A stretch of 61,951 bases of DNA, filler included, from Basidiobolus ranarum (lineage: Eukaryota), in assembly GCA_040143965.1 (NCBI GenBank). It is 7 parts of 7 records of this genome, joined end to end, with 100 filler letters (N's around TTAATTAATTAA, not from the genome) between each part and the next. Parts side by side here need not be neighbours in the genome. Positions count along the whole stretch, not along the records: positions 35,501 to 44,257 come from JASJQH010007800.1; 6 more parts are not named here. One strand, given 5' to 3'. The translations under genes and the position numbers were made by a program. This document shows positions 17,666 to 53,205 of the stretch, one piece after another; position 1 is the stretch's first letter; each line of letters opens with the position of its first letter. The notes beneath the pieces were generated by a model that did no database searches, had not been told where the DNA came from, and saw only the letters and a program-made list of their open reading frames with translations.

Positions 17666-17765
17666 NNNNNNNNNNNNNNNNNNNNNNNNNNNNNNNNNNN
17701 NNNNNNNNNTTAATTAATTAANNNNNNNNNNNNNNNNNNNNNNNNNNNNNNNNNNNNNNNNNNNN
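17666..17765. other. Artificial contig spacer
   Basis: N run with central TTAATTAATTAA. Confidence 0.98.
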
Positions 17766-19789: not shown

Positions 19790-20896
19790 CGCTGAATGTG
19801 TTTGCTAGTGAAATGTCTATAAAGAAGAATAAAATGACACTGTTCCAGACAATGAAATGAAGACTTGATGAATTGAACAACATTCAAGGTGATACACCAA
19901 ATTTATATCATTTCTACGTTATCGATTGTTTTGGGTGTCGATTCTATATGTAATCAATATGATAGCTGCATTGCCATATTTGACGATTCTTTAATTATCT
20001 TCCTTGATCTAGTATGGTGAATTATTTGCCAAGTGCTCGATTCGGCGTGTTGTATATATATGGCATTTTCGATAGAATTTCCATTTAGATAGTATCAAGA
20101 GATCATTCAAGCTTAGTCAACAAACGGCAAAGGGAATCAGATGTAGTTCGATGAAAAGATAATATATAGTTTGAATGAGGTTAGGTGAGGGGGCTCCTGG
20201 AAGAATACAACTGTCTTTAGGGCTGAATATCAAATACTCTGAGGACTAGGTAATTCTAGTAAACTTGGGTTAGGATTAAGCAAATTGCATAACTTAATCA
20301 AAGATCTTGGTTGATTTGATTACTCAGGATTAGGATTAGACATATCTCGGAGATATTATGGACCATGTGGACCATGATGTGAAACAGCGAATACTTCAAT
20401 TGAATAGCTAGAATTTGATCAACAGTACCATTTTTGATATACCTCCCAATTTAACCGCACCATGTGCAACCAGAGCCTTTTTCACCAATGTTGACTATTG
20501 CTCGATATATTACTGGATGTAGTTCCGTGGTTGATGAATCTTGACTTTCCTATCAAGTCCCATCGTGGTGAATTTCGCCATCCATCGGATAAATATTTGA
20601 TTGAAATAATGGCCCGATTCACCGACGGAAATAATATCGACTAAATTGAGGAAGCATAATCAGGAGGGAGAGGATGAGGATGTCAACGAGGAAGAGGACG
20701 TTGCGATAGAGACAGTCGTCATAGTCATAATGGGATTGGATAAAGATGAATTTGATTGCCTACCCAGACTTCGGGATGACACCAGGTTCTTTTTTAAAGT
20801 CAACTACTTGAATTGTGATAAGGCTGCGAACTTTTTAGCCAATTAATCCCCGTTTTCGATCCATGAAGTTTGATCACATTAGGTTGTTTTGGATTT

Positions 20897-20926: not shown

Positions 20927-21725
20927 TGAATGCACACCATATACACCCCATTGTTCACCTAACCCTGACTTCCTTGCTAATTTATCTCAAGAATCAGGGG
21001 TTTGATCTCCCCTTTATATCAACCATTCTGCGAAAGAAAACCTTTTTTTTGGCTTCTCTCCGACGTAAAAACAGGTTAGAATCTCCAATCCTTGGAATGT
21101 ATTTCACCTCATTCAGATAACAATGTCACGCAGCCATCGATTAAATGAAGGAACATGCCTTAATTAGAATTCGTATCTTAATAATCTATTCGAATCGCGC
21201 TGAAGTATATACGGTGATCGAGGACGGGGTACTAAGGTAGGGTTCTAATTGGATATGGCTCAACAAATATAGCAGAGTTGGCTATGACACCATTTTCTTT
21301 CTCCACTGACTCAACATTCATAACAGGATAGGGTTTAATAACACCGCTCCACCCTAACCCTAGCTATCAATTGAGAAGGTTAAAGATCTGGCTCATGACG
21401 TATCTGCCTAAAATTATTGGCTAAATGAAAGGGGAGGAGATATTAAGAGAGGAGTAAGTACTCCTATGATATCGCAATCATTGAGAGAGATTTACTATCG
21501 ATAAACTATCAGTGCACTATCTGTATACTGGCGAGCAAATCTCTATTGACCAAGTAATCTATCACATCGATGACAAGAGCGTGCAAGCTCTATCAGAAGG
21601 GTGATCTTCACTTATCTTGTTGTTAATTGGTATCAGGAATGCATGGAGATAGGCATATATATACCCAAGAGCACAGAGATATTACCTTACAAACAAATCT
21701 GCGAGTCTGTAACAGAAACCATAGA

Positions 21726-22745
21726 ATGGCTCCAAAGTTCCAAATCGTTTTGGCGCAAGACACCTTTTATCGAAGTGCATTTGAAGAAGGGTATTCCTCT
21801 TCGATCCTCAAGGGCAAACTGATATTCGCCCCATCCTCCCCTATGAAGGTGAATGGCATCAATCTTTGCTTTCGAGGCAAGCTATTCCTGAACACGGGAA
21901 TTCAACCTACACATAGGTCCATCTTCCAATACAGATGGGCCTTCTATCAAAATTCTAGATCTACGTCGTTCGAGGCCAAGGAGCATGTCTACGAATTTGA
22001 GCTGCCACTCCCTGCAGAGCTCCCAGAATCTGTAGACGCAGACTACGCAAGGATTCAATATAGTCTGAGAGCTACGGTGGAAACACCACTGTTTGCCTCG
22101 AATTTGAGAACAGACAAAGTGGTGAACATTCGGCAACACGTTGACACATTTATGTCTGTAAGGTACAACACTCATATTGAAAGCACCTGGAAGGATATGG
22201 TTGATTATGAGGTGATTCTCCCTAGCCATGAGTACTCTCCCGGTGACACCATTCCTATCACATTCAAGCATCATATACGAGATAACAGTTACAAACTAGT
22301 CAGTATATGGGCAGGTCTGGGTGAAAACACAGTCTACACAAGTGTAATTGGTAGTTCGACCGAAACTAATACTGTTCAAAAATGGTTGCGGACAGATTAT
22401 ATCAAGATCTGTAGTGATACAAGTTATATGACGCTCATCGTTCCCAAATCGGTCCGAAATATCCATTATGATGGTGCTACCCAATACGTGCAGGTATCGC
22501 ATACTATCTCTATTAGGATTGATGTTGAGTTGAATGGTGAGATCAAGCAAATTCGGGTGATAATGCCAATTCGTATAGTACGTGACACCCTGTCTACTGG
22601 CGAAGTGACGCAGTACGATCCGTTGCCAATATATGAGAAGGTCCGGTTCGATTGTCCCCCCGCTTATCTCAGCTATATTAGTAACTGTAACGAATCGCCG
22701 CCTCAATATCTTCCCTCATTCAGTCGCATGAATATCGGAGTGTAG
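21726..22745 (+). CDS. Alpha-arrestin (ART) paralog 3, intronless, 339 aa
   Basis: Start reassigned to ATG 21726 (MAPKFQI, matching MSPKLQI/MSPKLSI of paralogs); PY motifs LPIY, PPAY, PPQY. Confidence 0.92.
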   Translation: MAPKFQIVLAQDTFYRSAFEEGYSSSILKGKLIFAPSSPMKVNGINLCFRGKLFLNTGIQPTHRSIFQYRWAFYQNSRSTSFEAKEHVYEFELPLPAELPESVDADYARIQYSLRATVETPLFASNLRTDKVVNIRQHVDTFMSVRYNTHIESTWKDMVDYEVILPSHEYSPGDTIPITFKHHIRDNSYKLVSIWAGLGENTVYTSVIGSSTETNTVQKWLRTDYIKICSDTSYMTLIVPKSVRNIHYDGATQYVQVSHTISIRIDVELNGEIKQIRVIMPIRIVRDTLSTGEVTQYDPLPIYEKVRFDCPPAYLSYISNCNESPPQYLPSFSRMNIGV

Positions 22746-26538: not shown

Positions 26539-26638
26539 NNNNNNNNNNNNNNNNNNNNNNNNNNNNNNNNNNNNNNNNNNNNTTAATTAATTAANNNNNN
26601 NNNNNNNNNNNNNNNNNNNNNNNNNNNNNNNNNNNNNN
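26539..26638. other. Artificial contig spacer
   Basis: N run with central TTAATTAATTAA. Confidence 0.98.
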
Positions 26639-28352: not shown

Positions 28353-30035
28353 TCAACTAGATTCCTCATCTCCATAGTCATTTAGTAGTGCTGATAGCAC
28401 ATTGCCTGAAATGAGATCAATATCAATAACTTGCATTAAGAAAGCACATAGCAAAAGAGGATATACCTGATGATGAATCTACTGTTGCTATGCTTGAGTC
28501 ATCGGTACCTTTCAAGCTAGTTTTCTTGATACGCACTATCGCTTTCTTTAGTGGTTTGGATTCTTCCTTGAATTTATCTTCTTTTCTCAAGAATGGGTCC
28601 ATCTTCAATTTCGTATTGAGGGCAAGAGTGGCACCAAGCTTACTCAATGGTGATTGGTTTTTTTTCACCTCTGAGGGTACTGTTTTCGAGAAAAGTGGCG
28701 ATGCTGATACCTCAAGTTTTCTGCGTTTGGCTTCCTCTAGTACTGGATCTTTAGGTACAACCCATCAGTTTACCATTAATAAAGGAGAAAACCACTAGAT
28801 AGTACCTGCAAAGTTGGTGAGTTTTGCTCCAATGATATCTTCTTGGGCCTCCTCTAATAGAGGGATCGATAATGAGTTTCGTTCACATATCTCATCTGCT
28901 TGACGTTTCTTCTCAGCCAAAAACTTTTTCTCTTCCTACGGGATTTATAGGATGTTGACATAGGAACCGGTCAAAGTAACAGCCAGGTAATATCCACTTA
29001 CTCTAAAGGTCTTACGAAGCCGTTGATTATGTGTATATTGATCTTCCCAGAGTTTATCATTCAAGTCCTAGTAAGAAATATGATGAATTTTCAAGGGTGA
29101 TAATGATCATCTATGAATCAGCAAGCATCACCTGTAACCTGGTCAGCAAGGTTTTGGATTCATCGGCTTTACGTTTATCTTCTACATCATGCTCCAGTTT
29201 GAATATCGCATTTTCTGAAAGCTTCTTAGCTTCATCCTCGTCTGTCGATGTATTCAAGCGATTATTCAATCATTAAATAACCTTCAAGAATCCTTTAAAA
29301 AATCCTCATTTACCTTTAAACTTTATAGTTTCATTTTCTTCCGGGTCCCATGTTTCTTCTTTTTGACGTGCACCACTGGTAACGACATATCTTGAATTCT
29401 ATTAAATATAAAAGTAAATAAAAGTTGGAAGTAAATTACACTTAAAGTAGATAGTATTTTTTAACTTACTTTAGGATCGGTTTGAATCTCAATCCAACCA
29501 CTACATAAGTGACATTTCATACGAAAACTTAAAATCGGCGTAGAATAGTAATTTCCAACTTTTTTCTTTTCAGCATTATAACGTACACCTTAAGTTTACG
29601 AAAAGTTTTTGTTTAAGAATAGATTAGGGTTAAGAGAAGGATTGAGGTGGAAAGGGAAATGTTACCTGCACCAACGTGTTTTCCACAACTTTCGCACCAT
29701 ATGTTAAAAGGAAGTTCAAATCTAGCGAGATATTGTATGAAAATTGGTTTCGAATCATAAGCTAGTCAAATCTTCTCTTTATTCCTCCCACTCTCACTCA
29801 ATTACTTCTTATTTCTCTCAATTTTAAACCATACCTAACTATTAAGATTCCTTGGTCGAGTTTACGAGCTCGCTCGCGTAGTGGATGTTGCCCTTGGTAT
29901 TTATTAATGGAACCCTGAATAAATAAAAAAAGGTTCAGAAATTCTGGACTAAGGTGAAGTAACTTTTACGTAGCTTACTTTACTAGGATCCCAATCGGGT
30001 GGGTAATATTTGTTGGTAGCTTTTCTATCAGACAT
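28353..30035 (-). CDS. CCDC130: CWC16/YJU2-family splicing factor (CCDC130/Saf4-like), about 10 exons
   Basis: Spliced: [104 protein letters not shown]...[11 protein letters not shown]; all introns GT-AG. Confidence 0.93.
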
Positions 30036-32310
30036 ATTTCGATAAGGAGATAGATAGGGTGGAGGTTTTGGGTTTTGGTTCTTGTTCTAGTTTTGGTTCG
30101 TTGGTTGGTAATAGTATATGTTCATATATTATTCATGGGTGAATATTTTTTTTGAAATTTCCATTATTTCATCCACTAAATTTAGTCTTGGAAAATTGAC
30201 ATTCTTTTCTATGGTTTTACTAAGCCACTAAAGCATAATTATAGTAATATGGTTCTTGTCCTTTGAGTCTCTGTGGATTTGATAGTGTAGATGATATTGA
30301 ACTTTTTACTTTGTTCAAAGTGTACATTCTCTATCGGGGCAAGAAAGTATATTTGGAGTAAAAGTAGACGGAGAAGGAGGAGGATAATTTAATAATTTCT
30401 CTGCACTAAAATATCCTAGTTTTGGAGAAATGTAACTCAAGGCCTATTCGATTCATTAGAGAAATACTTTTGGTTTACTTACCTCTTGTCCCGTCCTTAG
30501 TCACTAGTATGATGAGGAACAACTTCAAGTTATTGGTTCAACTTTCCGTAATACTTTTATGAGTATTACTACTACTACCTCAGTCAGTCGAAATCTTCCT
30601 CTTGGAAATATACGCGTAAGAACATATGCTATATATATACAGCCTAAATGTAGAAAGTATAATCAACTACGATAGGAGTATTCTCGCTTCCAAGGAGATG
30701 GTCATCAATCCAGTCCATTCCTTCAACTAAATAGTATTGGAGTCTAAGCATTTACAATTGCAGTATGTCCTATTCGTCTAGAGAAACTCAATAGATAGTA
30801 ATATCAAGGTCACGTTTTGAACATCCAAATACGTGGACATTTACTCCACCATTCAACCGATTTTATTTTACATTACAGTAGTCTTCAACTTTGGTAAACC
30901 CATGTTTTGAGCATTTAAGTATATGCACTTAAGAAATCGTCTCGATAATTGTGTGCTAGAATCTAATCTTTACACTTTTTCAGAAGTTTGGTTTATGTAA
31001 TAAATCTACTAACTATGCGAGATCTATAGAATAGGAGACGGAAATGCAGTAGTACATAGACGTCTAGGTAGTGACCCATCCGATATACATTAAACCACTA
31101 CAAACTAATAACCACTCTACAATCTCCAGTAGTTAGGGTTAGGGTTGGGCTAAACGCTAAATTCAATGCCATCGCATTACCTATAATACCTCATATCTCT
31201 TAAAATTGTTACATGATCGGTACGACATCTATACTATGACTGGATTCTGCTTTAGAATTGGAATACCACATGAATGAACGCTCTGTTCAATGTGATCGCA
31301 CACATTCATCTGATGTGGATGGAGTATTTGAGAACCTAACCCAAGTAGCAGAAGTCATCGCACTTGGGAACTGGCGATAACAACGACTGTTAAAAAAGTG
31401 GAGTAGATGGAAACAGCTCATTCTTGATGCTCAAAGGAGTATCTGAAAAGGCTAAAAGTGCTCGTGTTTGAACTTCAGTGTGATGGCGATACATCAGTGA
31501 TGTTTGTTCATATAGATCTTGGTACTCAGGCCACACACTTCAATCATACACTCCTCCTCTACCTCAGCAGTGTAGTAACCACACTCACATGGTTTAACTG
31601 TTCATTCGATGTCACATTTATCTTCTTAAAAAAACCATAGACATCCGGTTATGAATAGACACACAACACCAGTGACAATCCAATCGAACCATTTCATACT
31701 ACCACAAGCAGCGGTGTTACTCGATATTAATCCTTTAACTACCGTCTACATTTCTCTATTTGGGTTTGGATTCATACCTACTAACACTCAATAATGTTTC
31801 TAGCACTGAATAAAAAGATAAATCACGGTTATTGGTGCTGAATAGCAAAATCAACAAACAAGGGATCAGACAGCCCAATAAAATCTTATCACACGCTAAG
31901 ATTCGCGAAGAATGATTCGTTGTGACGGGTAGCTGTGTACATATACGACTGAGAACATCCAGGCCAGAGTATTTGGAAACGATCTGGGGATATATGCCAT
32001 TACAAGATAATCAATGCATAGATTAGATGAAGCCTTGAGAGTAAATGCCAAAACAAAAATCAATCACTCCACTATTCAGTCAGTATAAATCGGAACACGA
32101 TAATCAGATCAACTCCATATATCGTACCCATCCATAATATCCCATCTTCTCGTATGTGTCACAGTGACAGGGCCAGGAAGAATTAGAAGGTTAACTATTG
32201 ATATGGGTGGTTGTATTGGCTAGGGTTCGGTTAGGATAAAATTGGGGGGTGATATGCAAACTACTATTAAACCAGACGTCTCTCCCTTGAACTTCATCAG
32301 CTTCTCAAAC

Positions 32311-32769
32311 ATGTCTCTTCGTACTTTCTCTTCCTCTCTTTTCCGTAACTACACTGCCTCTGTTAGAGCTTCCCCTCTGTACAGAGCCGCGTACTACTCC
32401 ACCACAAAGAGGTACACTGATGATCATGAATGGGTTTCCATTGCTGATGGAGTTGGTACTGTTGGAATCACCGACTACGCCCAAAAGGCCTTGGGTGATG
32501 TTGTCTTCGTAGATATCCCTGAGTCTGGCTCTACTGTCGAAGCTCATGCCCAGATTGGCGCCGTTGAATCCGTCAAAGCTGCTTCTGACATCTACTCTCC
32601 TCTTGCTGGTGAGATCGTCGAATCCAATACCGCTTTGGAATCTGAACCCGGTTTGATCAACAGCTCTCCTGAAGACCAAGGATGGCTCTGCAAGATCAAA
32701 CTTGCTGATGTTTCGGAGTTCGATAGTTTAATGGATGAGGAGGCTTACAAGGCTCACTGCGAGCACTAA
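32311..32769 (+). CDS. GCV3: Glycine cleavage system H protein, mitochondrial
   Basis: YTDDHEW, VGITDYAQKALGDVVFV, lipoyl-lysine motif VESVKAASDIYSP; Arg/Ser-rich presequence from ATG 32311. Confidence 0.97.
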   Translation: MSLRTFSSSLFRNYTASVRASPLYRAAYYSTTKRYTDDHEWVSIADGVGTVGITDYAQKALGDVVFVDIPESGSTVEAHAQIGAVESVKAASDIYSPLAGEIVESNTALESEPGLINSSPEDQGWLCKIKLADVSEFDSLMDEEAYKAHCEH

Positions 32770-35400: not shown

Positions 35401-35500
35401 NNNNNNNNNNNNNNNNNNNNNNNNNNNNNNNNNNNNNNNNNNNNTTAATTAATTAANNNNNNNNNNNNNNNNNNNNNNNNNNNNNNNNNNNNNNNNNNNN
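35401..35500. other. Artificial contig spacer
   Basis: N run with central TTAATTAATTAA. Confidence 0.98.
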
Positions 35501-36060
35501 ATTTTCGTAAAGACAATTTTTGTAAAACACAATAACAAATATCTACCATCCATTTCCACTGTCACCTAAGCCATGAATGAAGACGGATGGATGCATCAGC
35601 GATTCCTGAATTGAGACCAAACTGTTCGTTCCTAATGATGCCTGGCAATCAGTATGCACATTAACTTTAGCTTGATTCATCGGTTATTGATCGTTTGTGA
35701 ATGTTCAGGTATTCGGAGATCACTTCTAGGTAGTGGACGGATGGGCCCTGGATGCGGTATCTAAATCCATTTCCTAATGAAGGAATTTAATTATTACAGT
35801 TTAATAACATGTGCAATAGACTGAATGTACCCGGCAAGTTACACATATTTAGTGCGTTGATGAACTCATTAAGCATTCAATTAATGTCCAATATCAGTCA
35901 CAATCCTTGTATTACCCTCATCTGTTTGGTTTCAACCTTGCTGTCGCTGTTGTATTAAACACGTTGTGTCGCTGATTACTTATTATTGGACTTCTCTCTG
36001 AATACAACGTTGTTCATTGCCTTCCAATACCCTTTAGACACTTCCATAATTCACCACAAT

Positions 36061-36933
36061 ATGTTGTCTGACAAAGGTACTCTTTCGGGATGCAGCGACT
36101 TGAATATCCTCTAACACGTATTCTTTTCTAAGGTCTTGTTACTAAAGCCTCCAACAGAACTGAGAGCTTGAAGTGTCAGCTACCACAAAAGCGAGACCCT
36201 TTCTCTACTAATGATAGTAATTATACACAAGACGTGTATCTCGATGCTAAAGCCAGCAATCTCAAGAAAACTTTTACTTCTCTATTCAGATCAGTCACAG
36301 GTAATGGTCCCATTTTCCTCGCATTTACCTGAGAAATCTATTAATACCTATCCCAGGTTACTTCAAGGCCCCACCAGCAAGATCAAGTAAAAAGATCCGT
36401 ATCTCTAGTCCCTCTGATTGTATCCACTTTGGTCATGCAGGCATAGATCCCAAAACTGGTGAATTTAACGTGAGTAAACTGCGGTTGATACGTTGTAGAT
36501 GAGGATTATTAACACTTCTGATCGTAGAGCTATGCAAATACGTTCAACGGTCCCTTGCCAGGAGATAACCTAGAGGCTATAATGCGTGTCCCCACAAAGC
36601 AAAGGCAAGAGTCATTCAAAGATCCTTGTTACAATGGCACTGCATTTCAGTCTACGAAGGCAGTAAATAATTTAGAAGCTAAGGTATTCACGTATCCATA
36701 TGGTAATTTTGATATTTGAACTTATAGAGTTCCACCATTTAGAAGCGTAGAGAAATATCTGCTCCTCTAGATCTCTTGCATATCACTCATGTTAGCATCT
36801 CGACTACTGGAGAATTTATTGTAAGTACAATCCTGTTGTTTTGACAGTGTGTACTCGAACTCATTGTATTTTTCCGCAGGGATTACCAAAAGATTGGCAG
36901 GCAGTTTTGAAGGAATCTTCCTTGAGGTGTTGA
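36061..36933 (+). CDS. Small protein with two PAK-type CRIB/PBD modules and no kinase domain (194 aa, 6 exons)
   Basis: Exons 36061-36076, 36133-36300, 36357-36469, 36528-36683, 36743-36820, 36880-36933 join in frame. Modules RISSPSDCIHFGHAGIDPKTGEFN and EISAPLDLLHITHVSISTTGEFIGLPKDWQAVLKES, then SLRC*. Confidence 0.82.
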
Positions 36934-38052
36934 GTAATATTGTTAGACGATTTTATGGGAACCACTATTTATACTAATAATGGTCAATCTGTTACTTCCT
37001 CATATATATCACATTGCCAACTAATTTATTCGACAAGAACTAAATCTTTAACTTTGGGTTTTCGCTCTTGTATATTTGATTCTGAACTCATCTAATGGGG
37101 TTTATGATCATCATTCCTTAGCATTCCTTGACATTGATTGAATAAAGGGTGCTATTAGGCGGTTGTAAAAATTCGCGAAGACACAAGATCCTTAGCATGT
37201 GGAAACTACGACTTGACCGGTATAAAAGTCTGATTAGTTGTAAGGAATATTCACTCGGGTTAGTTGGATAGAATCCAATTTTGGCTGGTATTTCCAGAAA
37301 TTTCTATCAGCAAATATATATATATATAGACCCAGTGCTTTCATCATAATTAGCGATATCCATCAAATCAGGCTAACCATCAGGCGATTTAAACCAATAT
37401 ATGATGGCTATGTTTATGACAGATGGACAGATTTCATATTCGCGGATACTGGTTGTTGGTATAGTACTCAGTATGGTACTATTAGTACTAGCTCCGCGAT
37501 ATAATGTGTATTCTTATTCTCACAAATAGGTTAGGATAATACTCACCTTTTTTGACTTTCTTGTCCTTGAGACATTAGTAGAAATACACCGCTTGTTATC
37601 CAGTCAGTAATACTAACTACTCTGACACAGTGAAGTTACTTTAAAACATTCAGTAATCCTTAGTACTGGTAGCAGTCCATTGAAATGGCATTTAGTCTTT
37701 AATAGAATAGGTCTGAACTGTTGGTTTATATAGATCTATTGTGACTAAATGTTCCAGGTATTGAAAAATATAGATCATTAGCCGACTTGGTATTTCCCAA
37801 ATGCGAATGCAGCTAATTATGTCCAAAAGTATTTTTGTAAATTGCACTCTGGTTATTGTGTTGAAAGTTGAGATGTTTGCAATAGCAAGATATAAAAAAA
37901 CGTTTTTATTACTCTGGCATGTCGAGTAAGACTTGAGATTTCATATTGTATCAGACTTTATTATCAAAATGAAATATTTGAGTGGATACAGGAATCTAAC
38001 TAACTAGAGCGTTTAAGAGTCACTGAATAGTTCTATGTTCAGATATTTGTGG

Positions 38053-38814
38053 TTATTCCTTCACTTCAGTTTCACTGGTAGCTGGTTGTAGGGCAGGATT
38101 TGCGGTATATTCCTGATTCCCTTCCTCCGCAGCATACACTCCAGAGTAATTAATGGCGTGCTCTTCTGCAATGACTACTTCGCGATAGCGCGCGATGTTA
38201 TATACAAAGGTTGATTGAAGTAAAAACTACAAGTGAATAGATTAATGGAGACCATGATTTCATATCAACTTCCAATTTGAACTTACTGCTATTATCGCTA
38301 ACACTCCGTTATACCATTCGTGGTTGATAAAAGCTAGAACCATTCCAACAAATTCGGCCAGCATCAAGATAACAGTCAGCACAAGATAAGTTAGTAACAT
38401 CCAGGATTTGTGCTACAGCGAAAACATCGGTGAGTACAAGATGCATTCAACGGTTAAGGGTGGGCCTACAAACCCTGATGATTCCCATAAAACCAAAGAT
38501 ACTGCTCCAGAAGGTAACAAAAAACGCAGCAAAAAGTAAATACAATCCTATCCGACCAGCTTGAAAAGTCGAAGCATTGGAGTCCGAACGAATATCGTTG
38601 TTATTTGCATTAAAAGAAGAGTTTGTTACGCCACCCCAATTCAGAGAAATCAGGACCAGAAATAGGAGACCAAGAAGCTACATGGTCCTGGTTAGTTAAC
38701 AGTCGAAGGCTAGAGAAATAGTACGCTGAAAAAGCTTACCAGCTCGAATCCGGTCAATATCAGGCATCCAATGCGAATATTGATGCAGCAGAGACAGGTT
38801 TCGTGTTTGCTCAT
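38053..38814 (-). CDS. Four-transmembrane protein (tetraspanin/LAPTM-like), 4 exons
   Basis: Spliced: MSKHETCLCCINIRIGCLILTGFEL|LLGLLFLVLISLNWG...WSSIFGFMGIIR|HKSWMLLTYLVLTVILMLAEFVGMVLAFINHEWYNGVLAIIA|FLLQSTFVYNIARYRE...TEVKE*. Confidence 0.8.
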
Positions 38815-40281
38815 CTTTAGTATCTGAATATGCGGAGGATATCTTTATGTATTGGGTGTTAGTAGAGTAGCCCAAGCAGCAACCACAAATGATTACAATC
38901 TTTCAGTGTACAGGTTTATAAGAGCTTGCTAAGTCTGCAACCATCAAGTGATCGATCGTCATTAAGTGTCTTTTAACCCCCTTACACACATAGTCCATTA
39001 AGAGTTGCCTAATATTTCAGTTCCTTAAAAGCTCATTGTTTCGATCAACCCTGAGAACTTATTTAGTGTAATGTCTAAGGATTGTGGTGAGTGATGCGAA
39101 CTAATGTAAGAACCTGAAAACAATGGCTCAATACAGAAACTTCACCCTAATGGTGCCTTGATGCAAGGAAATCTTTCACCTAATGATTGTCGCGCTAATT
39201 TACTGAGGAAACCATCATCTGCTGTAGGCAAACACTAGTTCATGATTGGTGTAAACCGTTTAGCAAATGCACACGTACATACCAACTAACCATTTGGATG
39301 ACCTCAGTTTTTGCGCCGTATATAGTCGTACAGTGGGTCTCCATTATTGCTGGATTGGAGGCTTTTACCTTGCTTGGTCAAATTTAGCAGTAGTCTTTGA
39401 TTGTTCTTTCCAATAAGCCAGCCCTATCCCACATCAACTTGAAAATTCAGAGAAAACCATCTATCAAATGAATGCACTCGACAACTCACTTTGCAACCCA
39501 GCTAATTGTCAAAAAGGATTGACTGTTTCCATTTTTTACATCGTGGGCGTGCACTGTCTTGTTAAGCCTGATGCTTAGTAGGTGTGTTATGGATCTATGT
39601 AATTTCATATAATTTAATCCATAAATTCGGTCATATGGCAAGTAGTAATCAGAACGTATTGTGACTAGTCCTAGTACTGGCTAATGCGCTGAGAGAGCTT
39701 GGCAGGTCTTAACACATGGGATGAACCCAACATGTTTGCTCCAATAGCATCATTACTGGAGATGTAAGTGATAAGCATGATGGGCTAGATTCATAGGTTT
39801 TTAAGTGTCTACCTCCATTTTTAAGCAATATGAAGCTTTTCCATTTATCTTGTCATTTACAAGTATTACTATTTATGTGTTTTTTGCTCAGGTTGGTACT
39901 TGCCATAACTGCAACAACTGGCTGCAAATTCCTGGTTTGCCTGACTTGATGGTATAATGGCGATTTATGGAGGAGTTTAGTACATTCTTCATCTCCACAC
40001 TCTCAGTTTATGGTATAGCTTCATATGCAGAAGAAATCATATTTAGATTAGTTACTGAATCCTGGACTTATGGAATTAACAGTGCTAGTATTTGGTATTA
40101 CAATGTCGTCATAGAGTTGTTAAACCCACATTTAAAGTGGCATAAATGGCCTGTGCGTTGCAAAATGAGATTGCTTTGTATTTACTTATTAGTGACAAAT
40201 TTATTGAACAGAATTTAGACAAATCTATATCTAATACTATTCATGAGTGCATATGTATAGGACATGGGGATGGTTGATTTT

Positions 40282-41171
40282 CTATGCTTGGTAAGCGCTA
40301 AGACGTTCACGGGCGTATGACCCAATAGTAGAGTCACTTTCAACGGTTTCAATTAGCTTGTCGAAACCAGAAATTCCGTCAAAAACCTTGGACCCTACAC
40401 CTTTTAATGATTGAAGCATATTATATGCAAGAAGGTCAACAAGTGAGAGTTTGGATCCAACATAGTAGCCGTTTCCATTCTTCTCGAGTTGCTTCTCATG
40501 GTACTGGATAATCTCACTTGAGCAGGCCTTGAAGCTTACCTTGCCAGCCTCTTTAGCCTCATCAGTCTTACCAAAGCGGGTTTGAACCATTGCATTGATC
40601 AAAGCGGCCCATCCCTCGGCGAAGCTATCGATTAAAGCAGCTTCACGCTCATTAGAGCCGACGAGATCTATTGGTCCATTAAGAACGTTAGTTTTTCACT
40701 TGGTGCATGCTCAGTATCACCATCACTTACCAAATTTACGGGCAAGATAACGTTCAATAGCGTGACTCTCAGCAAGTTGGAACTCCTATGCGATGATAAA
40801 CATTTAGATATCTCGAATGAAACTTCTAGTGATGCCAAATAAGCTTACCGAGCCATCCTCTCGGTGTTCAATAAGAACCGGAAGACATCCGAATGGAGTG
40901 CTTGGCTTTTCCTCTGGCCAATTCTACAATGAACAAGATAGTGTTAGTTAAAAACCTGGAAGGAAGTTCTTTCAGGCCTCTGACTTACAGTAGGATGACG
41001 TTCGGACCAGTTGGCCTAAAAAAATCAGCAGTAAGTAACGCTGAAGGTTGATGGTGGGTCTCTCAATCGTTACTTTACCTTTCCATATTGAAGAAGAAGG
41101 CGACTAACTTCAGCACGACCAGTAGCGGGCCAGTAATACAATTCGTAGCGGGAATTATCAGTAGAAGGCAT
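40282..41171 (-). CDS. Glutathione S-transferase (sigma-like), 5 exons
   Basis: YELYYWPATGRAEVSRLLL, TPFGCLPVL, LAESHAIERYLARKF, YYVGSKLSLVDL. Confidence 0.93.
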
Positions 41172-42922
41172 GTCTGAAAGAGTATTGTTATTGAATTCAA
41201 TATGGGATACTGAGGATTATTTGTTCATTTATAGAGCCCTGATTCAGTCGGTGAAATTTCAAGATGACAAATCCACCTTTTTCCTTCAGTTTCCATCAAC
41301 TTGGATTAGAATCTCAAGTGTCGGGTTCTAGAATAATAAGGTTCGGGTTAAATTGAAAATCCAACCTAATTTCTCTTGTGCCACCAATTCGAACACTCAG
41401 ATTAGCCTAATCCTAGCTTGCGTAAAAAACCCATTTCAGTCAAAACCAGCAACTACTAGTACAATTACAGTACTCTGGTAATAGATATTACAGCATTCAG
41501 GATATTCGGGATATTCTCGGATTGGAGAATATCGTTAAACTCATGTATTTTGCTACATGGGTAAAAGGCATCTGAGAATCCCTTTTACCCGTTATACGAT
41601 TTAAATTTCCGCCCTTGATTTCAGTAACTCCACAATTCACGGTGTACTTACATTAGTAAGCAGTAAGTGAAGCTAAGTCTGCGGTTTGTTCCAAATAATG
41701 CTTCCATGAATCCATAATCATTGTTATGGAAAAGATCGAGCTCAGACCACTCTGGCCTATTTGCTCCAGAGTGCATATACAGACAATAAGCAGTCTTCTT
41801 TAACTTGACTATCTTGGATCTAGTTGATATATCTTGTAGATAGCCATGGTAATTATTACTTTCATAGGTGTAGTATATTTTCAGTGCATTACGAACACTA
41901 TTGCTCTAAACTCAGCGATGACGTCATTAGCTTGACAGTCATAAATAAATGTGGCCCCGTTGAGCTAAAATATATGGAAGTCGATAGTCGAAGAAAGTGT
42001 GAATTGCTTAAGTTCATCTATTAATACACTTGCTATTACCTCGATAAAATTCTCATCTCGACATAATCGAAATTCATTATACGTTTCAACCTCACACTCG
42101 TCGTGGGAATTTGACTCAAGAATACATCCATATAAAAAGCAACACAAACTGAGCTTGTATACAACTTCACATATGGTTCGTATTTGGAAGACGAACTACT
42201 AGCCCCAAGTAACCAGTACGAACGATCTGGACTAGCAAATTGTCTTTAGCAAATCCAAATTTCGTTTTTACCTCATCCAAAAATAATGAGGCCTGGTCCG
42301 GAATATTCAGTACCAGAAAACTAAGAGGCTACACTTCCACCTGAGTTGAAGTTTTATTGTTGAATATGTCCTCATTATCATTCGAAAATAATCGAGGGTA
42401 TGTAATATTGGGCACAACAGCAGTCAGAATATTCAAGCTTATCTAACTCTATCCACCTATGATGAATGTTTTTCCGCCTTGCGAAATTTGACTGGACTGA
42501 TTCTTAATCTGGTTTATCAGAGAATAGTCATCTTCGTTTAAATATTTTAAATGCCAAGATAAGCTTAACGAGTACCTTGGCTCAAAACAGAAATGGTTAC
42601 TTGATGCTGGGCCTGGAAATGCCTCAAGAAGCAAGTAATTTCTCCTAAGCCTCAATTCCCATGTTTAATACATCATTGTAAATATATTGTTCCATGCGCC
42701 TACAACTATGAGTTAAAAATACATTTAATAGCGGCACCTTAAACAATGTGTGTTTGGAAGGTTGTCTGCCTTACCATCACTATAAGATTCACACTGGATG
42801 AAGGAGATGTACTAATTGGAGTAGAGTTTAATTCAGAAGCAATATGGTCATTCCAAATAGTTAATAAAGTGACATTAGCTCATGTAATCTAGGCTTTTAC
42901 TTATTACATAACTAATAGATAT

Positions 42923-43033
42923 TAGGGAGGATGAAAAGCACCAAATGTTGTGTCCAAGAGAAAAGTGGATAAAAGTCTTGAACTTTACTGAACCAAAGAA
43001 ACATTTAAGTGCAGAATCTTAGAACTGTTTAAG
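42923..43033 (-). repeat. Dispersed repeat segment shared with 53723-53844
   Basis: Three colinear blocks on the minus strand: taaacag.tct.ag, gacttttat..acttttctcttgg, tggtgcttttcatcc.cccta; surrounding DNA is CpG-poor. Confidence 0.6.
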
Positions 43034-43512
43034 CAGGGTATATTAGCAGAGCAGGTCTAACTAATATATGTCTTGGGAATAGCAGTAGGTTGCTATGTTA
43101 CAGTAGAGAGTAGGTTTGCTAGGCAGCTAGGCTTGGTGTTCTGTAGATGCTAGTGAATACTAGGCTTGGATAGAAATGAGAGGCAAATATCAAATTTGTT
43201 GAGAAACACTGAGAAGTGTTGAGATCCCACATTTGTTGAGACACACCCTAAACCAAAAGGTTCAGTTAGCTTTATTTATACCTTTTGATAGCAAAGTGAA
43301 TTAGTCAGCACCAAGATAATGGATGACTAATTCTGATAAAAGAGAATATGATTGAATAGATATATAGAGAGATAAGTGGGTCATGCATCAGCTGAAGTCT
43401 TGGCAGTGACTGAGGATTGGTTATGATTCTTATGACTCATATTGCCTTGTGTCTGGGCAGATGTCTCATAGGTTAATACTGATTTGATGATGATCTTGTG
43501 ATGGGTCATATG

Positions 43513-43950
43513 TGTTAAAGTATTTGGGAGCCTGTTAGAAGTGGTTCGGGGAATTAGAGAAATTGGTAGTTTTTATTGGGAAAATATAGGCTATTTGGAG
43601 GAACATTTGAAAAGTAGAGTTATGAATAGCTTTGTAAGATAATTATCTATTGTCCAGAAATTAAGCATTTATGCATTTTGGCAGAAATACAGAAAACTAA
43701 CACTGGGGTTATGTTCAGAACATCTGTGGGAGTAAAATGTGTTAACTTTGGGGCATTTGGATGATCTTGAAATTTCCAATATGGGATTGCTAATTCTCAC
43801 ATTATTCACATATATATATAATATATGTTCCAATTTGCACTTAAGTGATATTTGACTAAGTAATCTTAACTAACTTATATGTGATATATGAAATAGTTAG
43901 GTGTATAAGGATAGAGATAACAAATATGATAAAGACAATAAACTTCAACA
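43513..43950 (-). mobile_element. Copia 3' LTR, subfamily B body with subfamily A-like 3' end (438 nt)
   Basis: TGTTGAAGTTTATT...CCCAAATACTTTAACA, preceded on the minus strand by the PPT-like AGTTGAGTTGGAG. Confidence 0.88.
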
Positions 43951-44257
43951 CTCCAACTCAACTAAATATTCATATATCTTAATCATAACTTAAATCTTGA
44001 TTCTTCAAATTTTGGATTGGGTAATGGTTAGGTAAGGATGTCAACAATCATGTCCCCAGTTGAACAGTACTCTAATTGGACATGCTTATTCTCAATAGCT
44101 TCCCTAACAAAGTGATGTTGAATGTCAATATGCTTACTTCTAGCATGAAATTTGGGATTTTTAGATAAAGAAATACAACTTTGATTATCCTTGAAAATTA
44201 TGGTGGGCTTAGGGGTTAGGGGGGGGGGAGACAGTAACCAACAGGTGAAATCTTTAT
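43951..44257 (-). mobile_element. Copia RNase H remnant and PPT
   Basis: KPTIIFKDNQSCISLSKNPKFHARSKHIDIQHHFVREAIENKHVQLEYCSTGDMIVDILT*PLP. Confidence 0.93.
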
Positions 44258-44357
44258 NNNNNNNNNNNNNNNNNNNNNNNNNNNNNNNNNNNNNNNNNNN
44301 NTTAATTAATTAANNNNNNNNNNNNNNNNNNNNNNNNNNNNNNNNNNNNNNNNNNNN
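44258..44357. other. Artificial contig spacer
   Basis: N run with central TTAATTAATTAA. Confidence 0.98.
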
Positions 44358-45357: not shown

Positions 45358-48300
45358 CTATACAAATTCACCTTTGAGACACCACCATCCTTTACCACTG
45401 CTTGTATCTTTTTCAAATGTAGCGATTGATTTGAGCATTTTACGAAACACGGGTACTTCTTCGCCACGAATTTTTAACTTGAAACTTGATACAATATCGG
45501 AAGTACTAGCCCGTCCACCATAAGCATAAAGGTAATCTCGGATTTTAAGGATTAATCCCTCCTGGGAATCCGGGCTTAAATCCGATGTAGCTAGAGTGAA
45601 GATATCTTAATAGATTATTAGGAGTAATATTGTTGGGGTATGATACTTACTTGGTGACGGCTTGTTTTCTTCCGCAACAGTACGCTCTCGTAGGTTTTTT
45701 AGAATCGAACTGGATGAAACATCCCCCTGATTTCCACGGAATCCCGACATACTCCCACTACCGAATTTGGAGGAATTACTACCCATTTGTACAACTGGAG
45801 CAGCTCTCAAAGCCGATGGCTGTGAATCCGAATTTGATATGGTGGGGTTCTTCTTTTGTCCAAACCGAGGCTGAGCTACTGCCGCCCCAGCTGTGCCAGA
45901 TCTTCCGGTCCAGGTTGGAACTCCAATATCCAATCGATTTCTTCTTTTTCGTGATTCTCGTAGTGCAGCGACAGCTCTTTCAGCTATTCGGTTAGCCTCT
46001 TGCTCGACTATGATGTCTTCTTGTCGAGCTGATTCCATAATGGTATCATGCTTTAGAGCACTGTGAATACCTGTTAATTCAAATAGACTAGAGAGGATGC
46101 GATCCTCGTCGTTATTGCTTGGCTGGCTGTCAGCATCATTGGTTGTTGTGTTTGCTTGAGTATCGGCGAACTTGCTAATAGTCGAGTTAAGAATGTAAAT
46201 AAACGCTGGTATATACAAATACCACAAACAACAAATATCTCTTAGTAAAAGGATACTATTCTTCCATACTGGCGACTTCTGGCAAAGACTCTAACTCTTT
46301 CCTTGTATTCTTTTTCTCAGAGTTCTTGGTTGGACTCTTCTTCTTCATGATCTCAGTACCAGCGAAGATTGCTCCGGTCTCGGTCTCTTCTCCATCAGTA
46401 CCTAGGGTGAATAGACAATGCAAATCATGTGCTTGAAAAAATCGTTTTTGCTTGGGATCCTTCAGGATTTTGTTGGTAAGAAATTGCTTAAATATTTGGC
46501 GATGATAGATCTTCTCTTCGATTGTTCCCGAAGTCATCAATCGGAAAATCGTAACCTCCTTCTTCTGGCCAAGTCGCCAAGCACGCTCACGCGCCTGCAT
46601 ATCTGTTGAAGGGTTCCAATCTGGATCAAAAATGATCACCCGATCTGCACTAGTTAAATTCAGTCCTAAGCCACCTACTTTGGTAGTGAGAAGAAATACA
46701 TAAATCTCTTCACGAGAATTGAACTCTTCTACCAGTGGAATACGATGCTGTATAGGAGTAGTGCCATCCATGCGACGATACTCATAGCCCAGGGATTTGA
46801 TGAATTGCTCAAGAATATCCTGCATCTGTCGGGTTTGTGAAAACAGAAGGACTCGATGTTGTTGAGGTTTCCATAGCTCGAGGAGAGCTTTGACTACTTG
46901 CATTTTGCCCGACTTTTCAGGCTGCCCGTAGGTGGTATTTTTATCACGAAGGATATCTGGAATGGTTAGATCTGGATGATTGCATATTTTCCGTACTAGA
47001 TCTATTCCAAAAAGCGCGTGCCGTCTTCCGGAGAAAATACTCTCCATTTCATTGGACTTGAGGAAGCTCTCATAGGCCTCACGTTGCTGCGGTGTTAATC
47101 GGCAAAAGAGAACTTGTTCGCTCTTTTTCGGCAGATCCGTTGCAACATCCACCTTCATACGCCGTAGTAGATAAGGATTAATGAGATCACGTAAAATGCA
47201 GGCACACTTATAAGCGGTCTGAACTTGAAAATTGTTGGCATTTGCAAATCCACCTAGGTTTATAGGGATAGCAAATTGACTTTGAAATACGGGGAGCGTC
47301 CCTAAGCGACCTGGGAAAACAAAATCAAATAATGACCAGAGCTCTGTCAAATTATTTTGAATAGGAGTTCCGGAAAGTATTATTCGATGAGGGGTTTTAA
47401 GTTGTTTGCACGCGAGAGTCACTTCTGCATCTGGATTACGAATCTTATGCCCTTCATCCAACACAACATACCCCCATTTTCGAGTCAGAATGTGCTTCCG
47501 GTAAATAGCCACACATGCATAAGTAGTGACTAAAACATGCCCTTGCGAGTGTATTCGTTCAACAAGACGCTCAACTTCAGGTCGGTCTCGAGATTCCGGT
47601 TTCTTCTTTTTCCCTTTCTTTTTTCGCTTTGGGTAGTCTTCAAGGTCTTCAGAGTCTTCGTCGTCATCATAAAGAGGTGCAGCAGCATTATTCGCTTTAG
47701 CGTCACCTTTCAGAAGAGACATCCCGCTACCGCTCGAATGTAGTATGGCAACACGCATGGGAGGCCACCAACGATGGAATTCTTTGACCCACTGTTTAAG
47801 CAATGTTGCGGGGCATACTATTAATGTTGGCTTATTGAGCATTCCAGAATACATCAATGCTCCTAAATATGAAATGACTTGTACAGTTTTTCCAAGTCCC
47901 TTGAAGGTTGGTTGAATAAGTGATACTGATTAACCTGTACAACCTTTCAATATACTACTCACCATTTCGTCTCCAATAATTCCTCCCACTTCTTGGCAAT
48001 GCAATTCCCAGAGCCATTGATTACCTAAACATGCTTTCTTAATATGTGTATAAATATAGTGATGTTCTAGAAAGAAAACTAACACGTCTTTTGGTAATCA
48101 AACAGATTGGCATAAATATCGCCTGGGACTCGAAATCCACCATCGAAAGTAGCGTCTGGTATACTAGGATGTGGCTCAGTGGCTTCACTCATGGGATCAA
48201 AATTAGAACCCAGTAGCTCCTCGAATTCTTCGGCAGCAATATCGGCTTCGACCTCCTAGTCACGTCAAATATCTTTAATCAACCTGCACAAGAAAACCCG

Positions 48301-49299: not shown

Positions 49300-49752
49300 G
49301 GATAGAGTGAAATTATTTAAAAGGTGAGGTGTGTTTTAAGTTGGAGAATTTACTTGGTATCTAGTGAAGTACCCAAAGTTCTTGAACAAAATCAAGCTAT
49401 ATATCGTGAATGTATTAGTATAAAGAATACTTGGAGTTTTGCTTGCCATGACAATTCACAATTTTATAAATAAAAAAAGACCGGTCACACTGTTAAAGAA
49501 TTGCCGCAGTCATCTCACTCGAAATCTCGATGATCAAACATATTTCCACATCATTGCATAGCCATTACATGAATGAATTCCGATCCTTGAATTTTTAGCA
49601 GTTTAAGTCAGTCCAAATCGCATGAGATAGGTCAGATTTAGGTGAGATGAATCGAGTATAAATACATGACATACAACAGTAACTTATTAAAAGAAATTTT
49701 ATCAATTCCCACTTTCAAAGAACCTTACCCTTTGATAACGATAACTATAAAC

Positions 49753-50250
49753 ATGCTCTCTAAAAGACTCTTGAATAAACTTCCACGTTACACTTCTATC
49801 TCTTTACTTAGAACTTTGGTATTACCTTCAAGTAGAACTTTTTCTACTTCTATCTTTGTTCACTCGGAATATCCCAACCCTGGAAACGGACCAGTCGGTA
49901 CTGTTGACGAGTTTGAAAAACCATATCCAACCCTTCTACCTATCCAACGTGTTAATGAGAGTGTCGAACAAAAGAGAGCACGTTTGGTTTACCAATGTCG
50001 TAAGAGAGGAATTCTTGAAACTGACCTTTTACTTTCCACTTTCTCAAAGCAATACCTTCCAACTATGACTGAACAAGAATTAACCGAGTTTGACCATTTT
50101 ATGGACCAACCAGATTGGGATATTTACTATTGGTGTACTGAAAAGAAGTCCCCCCCTGAACACATTAAAACCCTTTCCATCTTTCAAAAGTTGGTGGAGC
50201 ATTCGAAGAACGAACAGAAAGTGATTCTTAGAATGCCTGATTTGAAATAA
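49753..50250 (+). CDS. SDH5: Succinate dehydrogenase assembly factor 2 (flavinylation factor)
   Basis: KRARLVYQCRKRGILETDLLLSTF, DQPDWDIYYW, RMPDL; mitochondrial-like presequence from ATG 49753. Confidence 0.96.
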   Translation: MLSKRLLNKLPRYTSISLLRTLVLPSSRTFSTSIFVHSEYPNPGNGPVGTVDEFEKPYPTLLPIQRVNESVEQKRARLVYQCRKRGILETDLLLSTFSKQYLPTMTEQELTEFDHFMDQPDWDIYYWCTEKKSPPEHIKTLSIFQKLVEHSKNEQKVILRMPDLK

Positions 50251-50862: not shown

Positions 50863-53105
50863 ATGTTAAAGTACGTGTTGACCGTCCGTTTGTCCAACTC
50901 TAATCCTTAATGTTCACCATTAGAGAGAAGCTAACCGCATTATTAACCTCCATTAGACCGTCTACAGTATTCAATCCGCTTCGTCACGTTAGCACAAAAG
51001 TATCTTTCTAAGTTATTTCTCCTGGGGTATAATATTTCTTGAAAAATAGTGACATGCTTTATGTTTGAATTATCCAGTCTAAACTGTCCCTCAGTTTTGG
51101 TTCAGTACTCACTACTATGGCGCGACGTGGTTACCAGAGCAATAACAAAGGCTCCTCTACTGCACCTGAAAATGGTCAGAAGAAAGCCGAGTCTGATTCT
51201 AAAATACCTCAACATGAAAGAATTCTATTAGAGCCAATACGTACCAATGTGGTGAATTCATATTGGAAAGACATATCGAATTATACTCACGAACCAGGTA
51301 TACACTTACTTATTTCACATACTATGATAGCCATTATTTAGTAATATTAATCTTCTTGACTTCTAGGGTTGTTCCTTCTTGGTGAATCTGAAACCCACCG
51401 AGTTGCTCATAGCAATCAATATATTCTAAACCATTTACGTTCGGTGATTAATCTGGAGCAGGCGCATGGGGACCTAATCCCCTCTATAGTGACTAAGAAA
51501 TGTTGCGAATTGTACGAATCTTTGGACAAGGTTATTTCTAAATCCTCCATCCATAAGTTAGATATGACTCTAAATTTCCATTGTAGACCGGGAAAGTGAC
51601 GTTTTTGAGACTTATGAGTCAAGAATTTGGTATGGTATATGTTGCAAGTAAGTACCAAATGAGAGTTAATATTCATAAATAGTCATTAGGTGCACCAAGG
51701 GATGAAATCTCGAAAGCAGCTAGACATTACATTAAAGCTATGGATAATCAAACGGTAATCTCATATAGATTTTGTTGACATCCGTTTGTAACTGTTTTAC
51801 TGACCATTGGATTAGGATGGGACAGAAAAGGCCATCTTAAGAGCTCAACAAATCCTAAACCAAACATTGGCTCCGCCCTTCAATCGATTCTTCGATAATG
51901 TCAACAAGCTTCCAGGTGGTATGAGATTTCTGATCGACATGAGAAGTGATATGCTGGTGGGTTAATTAATACAGTAGTTGATTGACCTTGGAAAACTAAT
52001 GAATTTGATAGGAAATCTTGAGTCAAGATAAATCAGATCTTAACATTGCTTCATTAAGCGATGCGCTAAAAGAGAAGCTACAAAACTGGCTATTAGGTTT
52101 CCTGGAACTTGAAAGAATTACCTGGAATTCACCTGCAGCAACGTTGGAAAAAGTGAGGTTTATCCAGTTAATGTATCAATTCTTGTTGCTGATTTCTAAT
52201 TCGGATTAACATGATTTGACTAGCTTGCCCAATATGAAGCTGTCCACGCTTTTAGTAACTGGGCCGATTTGAAAAGGTAAATTATGAAGGTTTGAAGAGG
52301 TGAACCATCAGTACTAATTTAGCACAATGTATAGACGTGTTGGCCGGGGAAGAAGATGCTTCGGATTCTTCCATAGAAATATGCCAAATGATCCTTTGGT
52401 TTTTGTTCAAGTAGCCTTGGTGACCGATATTTCAAACAATGTGCAGGTAGGTGAATCTTTGGTCAATGCGGTATTCTTTTGGCTTGACACTTATCAAGTT
52501 GAATAGAACATTTTGAATGATCCATCTCCCGGTCACATCAATCCCTCAGAAACAATTCGCTCAGCTATCTTTTACTCGATCACTTCTCAACGCGGGTTAT
52601 CGGGAGTGGAATTGGGCAACTTCTTGATTAAGCGAGTGGTCGGAGTATTACAGGAAGAGTTCCCTCAGATTCACACGTTTTGCACTCTCTCCCCAGTTCC
52701 TAAATTTAAGAAGTGGCTAGATAATCAGCTTATCCGACAGGAACCATCAATTCTCTTGGAGGAAGATATCAAGCTTCTGGCAACATTAGGAGACAAAGAG
52801 CCCATGGCAGTATTCAAAGTGTGTATTTAACTGTTGATTGTTCAGAGCATTTATACTAAATGCGCAATCATCTTAGGATATCGTCAATTCATCAGCTTGG
52901 TATGAGGATCCAAAAGCATCCGCAGCAGTCAAAGCGCCACTTATGCGTCTTTGTGCAAGGTAGTCGATCCCATTCCCATGAAATCCACTCCCACTAACCC
53001 TCTGTTAGGTATCTACTAGGGCAAAAGCGAGGATATCTGGCATATGATCCAGTTGGTTAGTAGTTCTTTCTTCTGTTGGTGAATGAATGAGCGGATAATT
53101 AAATG
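50863..53105 (+). CDS. MLYCD: Malonyl-CoA decarboxylase, many exons, 3' truncated
   Basis: LERITWNSPAATLEK, YEAVHAF, RRCFGFFH..MPNDPLVFVQVAL, AIFYSITSQRGLSGVELGNFLIKRVV, TLSPVPKFKKWL, AYDPV. Start codon tentative. Confidence 0.92.
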
Positions 53106-53205
53106 NNNNNNNNNNNNNNNNNNNNNNNNNNNNNNNNNNNNNNNNNNNNTTAATTAATTAANNNNNNNNNNNNNNNNNNNNNNNNNNNNNNNNNNNNNNN
53201 NNNNN
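53106..53205. other. Artificial contig spacer
   Basis: N run with central TTAATTAATTAA. Confidence 0.98.

Follow-up and report, generated by a model that had tools for sequence, protein, structure and literature searches.

Two PAK-type CRIB modules and no kinase: a small Basidiobolus protein as a candidate bivalent binder of active Cdc42/Rac

INTRODUCTION

What use would a fungus have for the regulatory head of a PAK kinase when its CRIB module is there twice and the kinase is not there at all? The question is posed by a gene on the plus strand of a 61,951-nt stretch of joined genome parts of Basidiobolus ranarum (assembly GCA_040143965.1; ‘the window’ below is that whole stretch), where six exons at 36061-36933 encode a protein of 194 amino acids (aa), P0001, with two CRIB motifs. 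An earlier reading made from the sequence alone (the sequence-only reading) had taken the product for a candidate decoy of Cdc42/Rac or an inhibitor of PAK kinases in trans. On balance we lean towards a PAK-derived double-CRIB protein that has lost its kinase and would serve as a bivalent binder, a competitor for or buffer of active Cdc42/Rac, and not as a PAK autoinhibitor. That active Rho GTPases are bound at two sites is the part of this that we would call probable.

TWO CRIB MODULES AND NO KINASE

The first CRIB core, ISSPSDCIHFGHA, is formed by residues 77-89 (36401-36439) and the second, ISAPLDLLHITHV, by residues 156-168 (36755-36793), from which the protein continues into GEFIGLPKDWQAVLKESSLRC and then stops, just as the sequence-only reading had it. 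CRIB cores have the consensus I-S-x-P-x(4)-H-x(2)-H, and in neither module do the I, S, P and two H residues vary across the family of relatives considered below. The PBD profile of Pfam (PF00786) matches the whole of P0001 in two stretches with 52.4 bits against a cut-off of 21.3 (E=6.5e-14), the better one placing residues 155-191 on profile positions 1-38 of 59, and exons taken singly also match (E=4.7e-4 and E=0.027). No Pfam family other than PBD appears in P0001 at E<=10, which goes for kinases, as had been anticipated, and equally for BORG homology domains. The PAK-type extension GEFxGLPxxWxxL is present in module 2 as GEFIGLPKDWQAVL; in module 1 GEF is kept only in clade A of the family, to which P0001 belongs, clade B having xEIxGLP instead.

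Could a kinase be hidden in the neighborhood? Pfam found no Pkinase match in 135 stop-to-stop open reading frames (ORFs) of at least 45 aa on both strands between 28 and 46 kb (137 were found, and two containing N were left out), nor in 125 ORFs of at least 62 aa across the rest of the 62-kb window. With six full-length PAK kinases (P0095, P0108, P0065, P0022, P0106 and P0082) as tblastn queries against the whole window, only the CRIB exons were matched at E<0.04 (36383-36924, by the CRIB regions of the PAKs). Beyond these, P0082 matched at 52651-52728 with an N-terminal part outside the kinase (E=0.046), and residues of the kinase region matched at 9160-9279, 11662-11784 and 18075-18116 at chance level (E=2.6-9.8). 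The next recognizable coding pieces downstream are on the minus strand, a weak Tetraspanin match at 38263-38412 (E=5e-4, below the cut-off) and a Pfam match to GST_C at 40285-40695, so that two further statements of the sequence-only reading, that no kinase follows and that the next gene is on the opposite strand, stand. The clade A proteins P0001, P0002, P0110 and P0004 have the same C-terminal end, SSLR[CY]-stop. Lipidation of that end was considered and rejected: P0001 and P0004 end in C but P0002 and P0110 in Y, and the place is not that of a CaaX cysteine.

Rebuilt by script from the window, the spliced frame is uninterrupted over its six exons (585 nt, 194 codons and a TGA). Its translation is, letter for letter, the NCBI hypothetical protein K7432_011647 of B. 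ranarum, and because of this identity the model that had been put together by hand for the sequence-only reading is the same as the deposited one. In UniRef P0001 is named CRIB domain-containing protein, and a word search that started from the ORF of exon 3 matched no other protein. All five introns are GT..AG. Exon 1 (36061-36076) has the ATG and encodes MLSDK and the first base of G6; intron 1 (36077-36132; 56 nt, phase 1) separates it from exon 2 (36133-36300; residues 6-62), whose pre-CRIB segment, residues 46-61, lies at 36252-36299, and intron 2 (36301-36356; likewise 56 nt and phase 1) leads to exon 3 (36357-36469; residues 62-99), a basic stretch followed by CRIB1 to GEFN. Intron 3 (36470-36527; 58 nt, phase 0) stands right behind GEFN. 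Exon 4 (36528-36683; residues 100-151) begins with a conserved block, residues 100-118, and the rest of it is a variable linker; beyond intron 4 (36684-36742; 59 nt, phase 0), exon 5 (36743-36820; residues 152-177) carries KRRE and CRIB2 to GEFI. Intron 5 (36821-36879; 59 nt, phase 0) is right behind GEFI, in the place that aligns with that of intron 3, and exon 6 (36880-36933) encodes residues 178-194, GLPKDWQAVLKESSLRC, before the stop TGA. The uniform short introns (56-59 nt) and a G+C content of about 36% both fit one genome-wide style. No in-frame ATG lies upstream of the start within the stop-to-stop ORF 35959-36114, and the N-terminus, MLSDK or MLADK, is common to P0001, P0002 and P0110. 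An AATAAA is present at 37140-37150 on the plus strand, about 210 nt past the stop, with a short (TA)n run further on at 37310-37330, both within a gap of roughly 750 nt ahead of the convergent minus-strand gene. The evidence points to a real protein-coding gene at 36061-36933, for a small (194 aa), non-catalytic protein that is predicted to be disordered.

As to that disorder, CRIB regions are usually disordered alone and fold on binding, and P0001 on its own is predicted to behave as expected of them. The AlphaFold2 model, from an alignment of eight sequences, has a mean predicted local distance difference test score (pLDDT) of 42.4, a predicted template modeling score (pTM) of 0.17 and no residue above 70; its low-confidence elements are helices at 46-61 and 183-187 and strands at 83-91, 98-102 and 166-171. 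The Atlas model is equally poor (pLDDT 0.52), and the Atlas structure matches for P0001, all with template modeling (TM) scores <= 0.32, are meaningless; its three feature matches are PBD clusters only.

A PROBABLE PAK REGULATORY HEAD, CUT SHORT

Where do the modules come from? The 13 PDB sequence matches to P0001 are headed by 11 PAKs, the other two, adenylate cyclase and N-WASP, having E>0.5. Module 2 (residues 150-192) aligns with residues 2-45 of the 46 of 1ees_B, a PAK chain, at E=1.4e-5, the entry being one that we take to be Cdc42 in complex with a PAK fragment, and it aligns also with the PAK fragment 1e0a_B. On the PAK1 fragment 1f3m_A, presumably from autoinhibited PAK1, it covers positions 1-43 of 80 only. 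A PAK profile was assembled from 63 single-CRIB Ste20-type PAK regions, each with 30 residues ahead of the CRIB start and 70 past it, with matches short of flank, or with zero or several CRIBs, left out. Module 1 of P0001 meets it at positions 9-53 with 25.7 bits, taking in the pre-CRIB segment, and module 2 at positions 21-67 with 58.7 bits, comprising the CRIB and GLPxxWxxLxES. Module 1 of clade B aligns at positions 5-61, GLP being retained past the CRIB, and positions 68-100 are reached by no family member. BLASTP against the single-CRIB protein P0103 tells the same of each half: residues 48-98 fall on its pre-CRIB segment and CRIB (39% identity over 54) and residues 152-192 on its CRIB and extension (48% over 42). 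The assignment of both modules to the PAK type by the sequence-only reading is borne out. Since module 2 spans the 46-residue, Cdc42-bound PAK fragment and both modules are PAK-like, PAK origin and GTPase binding are plausible, and P0001 looks like the regulatory head of a PAK with the CRIB module doubled and with nothing left beyond the middle of the autoinhibitory region. The stretch PGDNLEAIM behind CRIB1 was entertained as a shrunken inhibitory-switch helix (NPQAVxxxx in PAKs) and dismissed, the alignment of module 1 of clade A stopping at 53-54.

Might such a protein restrain PAKs in trans, as the sequence-only reading had proposed? In PAK1 the dimerization segment overlaps the CRIB. One can thus imagine a trans-acting regulator that binds a PAK kinase domain or pairs with the dimerization segment inside a PAK CRIB, and the PAK type of both modules would suit it. 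A passage in PMC10017488 divides the PAK1 autoinhibitory region into three subdomains, a dimerization interface (which also speaks for such a regulator), the inhibitory switch, and a kinase-inhibitor part C-terminal to the switch. Aligned to this scheme, however, P0001 appears to end within the first element of the inhibitory switch, the rest of the switch and the kinase-inhibitory segment being absent: module 2 has counterparts for 43 of 80 positions of 1f3m_A and 38 of 59 of the PBD profile, and in all seven family proteins the chain ends without a match to PAK profile positions 68-100. With the second half of the autoinhibitory region missing, classical trans-inhibition of PAK kinases is unlikely, which weakens the earlier proposal, and we regard trans-regulation of PAKs, by whichever contact, as highly improbable.

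HOW OLD IS THE SECOND MODULE?

In both modules a phase 0 intron follows GEFx at the equivalent aligned position (GEFN, between 36469 and 36470; GEFI, between 36820 and 36821), as the sequence-only reading had pointed out in favor of internal exon duplication. The shared site is real and duplication possible; the intron may have been carried along in a duplication, or a PAK ancestor may already have had it. What does not survive is the notion that one exon was simply copied from the other. The phases are 1-0 for exon 3 and 0-0 for exon 5, shuffling gives introns as similar as introns 3 and 5 are (102 of 500 shuffles reach their score), and CRIB cores 1 and 2 have 12 of 26 amino acids and 40 of 78 nt identical. 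For module 2 of P0001 the score is 53 with module 1 of its own chain, as compared with 72-81 with module 2 of clade B, 91 with P0103 and 101-127 with 11 single-CRIB PBDs; for either module, canonical PAK PBDs score higher than its partner in the chain. A recent exon duplication is ruled out by the unlike introns and the diverged CRIB cores, and any duplication must for these same reasons be old.

A BASIDIOBOLUS FAMILY

Searched exhaustively with HMMER, 1.84 billion representatives yielded 108 homologues at E<=1e-3, most being single-CRIB Ste20-type PAKs or fragments thereof. Nine of the 110 proteins collected have at least two CRIB matches without the HRD kinase motif. The named, full-length, double-CRIB, kinase-less family has at least seven proteins, four from B. 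ranarum (P0001, K7432_011647, 194 aa; P0002, named ‘signal transducing kinase of the PAK’, 187 aa; P0011, K7432_009974, 243 aa; P0111, K7432_002641, 260 aa) and three from B. meristosporus CBS 931.73 (P0110, K493DRAFT_98490, 186 aa; P0024, K493DRAFT_305711, 258 aa; P0112, K493DRAFT_339828, 232 aa). A lack of orthologs, which the sequence-only reading had named among the things that would count against it, is not what is seen: orthologs and paralogs occur in two Basidiobolus species. The database name of P0002 is misleading, the protein having two PBD stretches only and no kinase domain. Pfam gives two PBD stretches each in P0002, P0110, P0011 and P0024, and for P0111 and P0112 the domain content was taken from precomputed PF00786 annotation and a CRIB regular expression. 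In all seven, CRIB2 is at the extreme C-terminus, followed by PxxW[QR]xxL and four to eight residues, with the end about 10 residues past module 2.

A maximum-likelihood tree of the seven (the 73-aa fragment P0004 was left out) has two clades with 100/100 support, A (P0001, P0002 and P0110) and B (P0111, P0024, P0011 and P0112), the pair P0011 and P0112 being supported at 95/97. As each clade contains both species, the two-module architecture predates the species split, and by this tree it has been kept since. Within clade A, P0002 and P0110 are 68% identical, P0001 and P0002 61%, and P0001 and P0110 55%; P0004 and the last 73 residues of P0001 have 63% identity and the ...LRC end in common. 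Identity to P0001 comes in blocks. The pre-CRIB segment with CRIB1 (residues 48-99) has 69% in P0002 and 63% in P0110, and the block of residues 100-118 has 79% and 68%, neither being covered by P0004; the linker (119-151) falls to 23% in P0002, 31% in P0110 and 38% in P0004, and CRIB2 (152-194) is back at 74%, 67% and 79%. All alignment gaps in clade A are in the N-terminus or the linker. Clade B has a conserved N-terminal block of its own, WVAPxxGP, and a conserved stretch behind CRIB1.

Such blockwise conservation is the pattern that purifying selection on motifs would leave. Might P0001 nonetheless be without function, whether as what is left of a PAK gene that was duplicated and is now decaying or as an over-predicted model? 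Its branch is the longest of clade A, each of its CRIBs departs in places from the canonical residues, and its annotation as ‘hypothetical protein’ is a prediction. However, the frame is intact over six exons with canonical splice sites, there are seven intact relatives in two species with a common start, architecture and stop, and no kinase remnant is found in 62 kb. Decay is argued against because conservation is blockwise, gaps and indels are confined to the N-terminus and linkers and the CRIB residues are invariant, and we give it very little credence.

Among the matches there are further kinase-less arrays of PAK-type CRIBs, P0003 (four modules in 296 aa) and P0005, P0007 and P0036 (two each); P0007, of 158 aa, ends directly behind module 2. 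Because of these kinase-less multi-CRIB proteins, similar architectures may exist outside the named Basidiobolus family.

WHAT WOULD TWO CRIBS DO WITHOUT A KINASE?

With PBD the only Pfam family at E<=10, P0001 has no recognizable output domain, and for this reason a role mainly as competitor or buffer suggests itself. Each CRIB module would bind one GTP-bound Cdc42 or Rac at the membrane. The basic-rich region of yeast Ste20 and Gic2 helps membrane association, and the basic, possibly helical pre-CRIB segment of P0001 may aid it in like manner. Isolated PBDs shield the GTPase from GTPase-activating proteins (GAPs); lacking an output domain, P0001 could cover the surface of active Cdc42/Rac that effectors use, keep GAPs away from the GTPase and in this way tune polarity signaling; inhibition of PAK kinase domains by the known autoinhibitory mechanism is not to be expected. 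Two sites per chain would confer avidity for dense patches of active GTPase, for which a precedent is described in a passage of PMC10234108, where a tandem pair of WASp CRIBs pre-localized a sensor at the plasma membrane.

Several considerations weigh against this assessment. The structure model is too poor to back anything but disorder, and the NCBI model K7432_011647, identical as it is, is itself a prediction, with the splice junctions likewise predicted. CRIB1 of P0001 has C where relatives and PAKs carry F, and its CRIB2 reads HVSIS as against HVGF[DN] in PAKs. The P0001 branch, longest of clade A (0.51 as compared with 0.19 and 0.12), could mean relaxed constraint. Lastly, the conserved block 100-118 hints at a further partner, so that ‘pure competitor’ may be too narrow a description.

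That block (36528-36584), SYANTFNGPLPGDNLEAIM, is as conserved among clade A as the CRIBs; no Pfam family matches it and it is not aligned to the PAK profile. It may be a second binding motif for a further partner. Would P0001 then be an adaptor-type effector in the mold of Gic1/Gic2 or BORG/CEP, whose CRIBs localize it and whose additional block, 100-118 in clade A or the N-terminal one in clade B, recruits septins, a formin or a part of the exocyst? The identity of 68-79% in the one, level with that of the CRIB blocks, and the conservation of WVAPxxGP and of the stretch behind CRIB1 in the other, would both be accounted for, and kinase-less CRIB linkers are known, Gic2 binding both Bni1 and GTP-Cdc42 according to PMC3459858. 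Yet Pfam gives nothing beyond PBD at E<=10, the extra blocks differ between the clades with no common partner motif visible, and they are short and in a protein predicted to be disordered. An adaptor is in our judgement unlikely, though a possibility to be taken seriously.

The bivalent competitor or buffer, which we prefer, has also a bolder version. One chain might clamp two GTP-bound Rho GTPases, possibly one Cdc42 and one Rac by way of the differently diverged modules, stabilizing membrane clusters and shielding them from GAPs, as a kinase-free feedback element or buffer of polarity whose paralogues were expanded for the unusual growth forms of Basidiobolus. We offer this as speculation, and consider it rather doubtful.

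THE REST OF THE WINDOW

Upstream of the double-CRIB gene are matches to a glycine-cleavage H protein (32224-32766, plus strand) and to the splicing factor Saf4/Yju2 (29616-30086, minus strand). Elsewhere there are an SNF2-family helicase (46259-47929, minus strand) and, on the plus strand, the flavinator Sdh5 (49651-50247), malonyl-CoA decarboxylase (52318-52827) and a PAP2 phosphatase (55899-56324). None of the housekeeping genes of the window has an evident link to Rho signaling, and among the ORFs searched with Pfam there is no Rho GTPase. Two long ORFs, at 18749-19804 on the minus strand and 21627-22742 on the plus strand, have arrestin N and C domains and form a divergent pair about 1.8 kb apart, and a short ORF at 3926-4117 (minus strand) matches the gag of copia-type long terminal repeat retrotransposons (E=7e-12), probably as a retroelement fragment. 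Runs of N, 44 letters each and twelve in all, occur in pairs at a spacing of about 8.87 kb (8786-8885, 17666-17765, 26539-26638, 35401-35500, 44258-44357 and 53106-53205) and look like regular masking or chunk joints, not assembly gaps; the piece from 35501 to 44257 has 8757 bases.

COMPARISON WITH KNOWN CRIB SYSTEMS

The gene is already known in the sense that public databases have it as an uncharacterized ‘CRIB domain-containing protein’. What is new, by sequence comparison, is a multi-gene family in two species whose proteins are little more than two PAK-type modules, of which no description was found in the literature searched: among the matches listed by a full-text search, taken by title and start of abstract, there was no stand-alone tandem PAK-type CRIB protein, and for CRIB proteins in Basidiobolus there was none, the matching papers dealing, to judge by their titles, with clinical, veterinary, taxonomic or nomenclatural matters. 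That CRIB-only proteins modulate Cdc42/Rac signaling is known. The family would be a modest addition to fungal polarity biology, leaving the overall picture unchanged. If both modules bind, the regulatory region of a kinase would have been recycled as a protein in its own right, one that reads or buffers active GTPases multivalently, and it would offer a compact natural scaffold for Cdc42/Rac probes.

A close likeness is to group I/Ste20-type PAKs (PAK1-3 and fungal Ste20), with which P0001 has in common the CRIB core, the extension GEFxGLPxxWxxL and the pre-CRIB segment before module 1. It differs from them in being without a kinase domain, in having the CRIB module twice and in missing the second half of the autoinhibitory region.

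In size and simplicity the counterpart is CDC42SE1/2 (the SPEC proteins of animals), likewise very small and non-catalytic with CRIB the sole recognizable element. The SPEC CRIB is not known to be of the PAK type with a GLPxxW extension, and SPECs have N-terminal lipidated cysteines and one CRIB, whereas P0001 has two CRIBs and starts MLSDKG, a SPEC-like N-terminal cysteine pair being absent. No sequence relation to SPEC was seen beyond the CRIB, and there was no SPEC among the 13 PDB matches. CDC42SE1 is introduced in PMC6406378 as a 9-kDa small effector that binds CDC42 via its CRIB.

Gic1/Gic2 of yeast and the BORG/CEP proteins of animals are, like P0001, Cdc42 effectors with a CRIB and no kinase, Gic1/2 being spoken of in these terms in parts of PMC3459858 and PMC2172333. 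Each of these has one CRIB together with further regions for binding partners, as against PBD only by Pfam in P0001. BORG and the plant RIC proteins are likewise kinase-less CRIB proteins, and Takahashi and Pryciak in 2007 are said to have described a basic membrane-binding region beside the CRIB in Gic2 and Ste20.

Natural proteins with two CRIBs include PLD2. To it can be added, going by PMC8847673 and PMC4585930 respectively, the gelsolin-related GnrC of Dictyostelium, with two consecutive CRIBs at its N-terminus, and Coronin7, with one in each WD domain. These are all large, with lipase, actin-binding or WD-repeat domains, whereas P0001 is essentially two PAK-type CRIBs.

Engineered tandem or dimeric CRIB biosensors also have two CRIBs per unit, and multivalency raises their relocation to the membrane, as recounted in part of PMC10234108. 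Those are artificial and employ CRIBs of WASp or others, whereas the Basidiobolus family is natural, and should one chain indeed clamp two GTPases it would be the naturally evolved counterpart of the multivalent CRIB biosensors of the laboratory.

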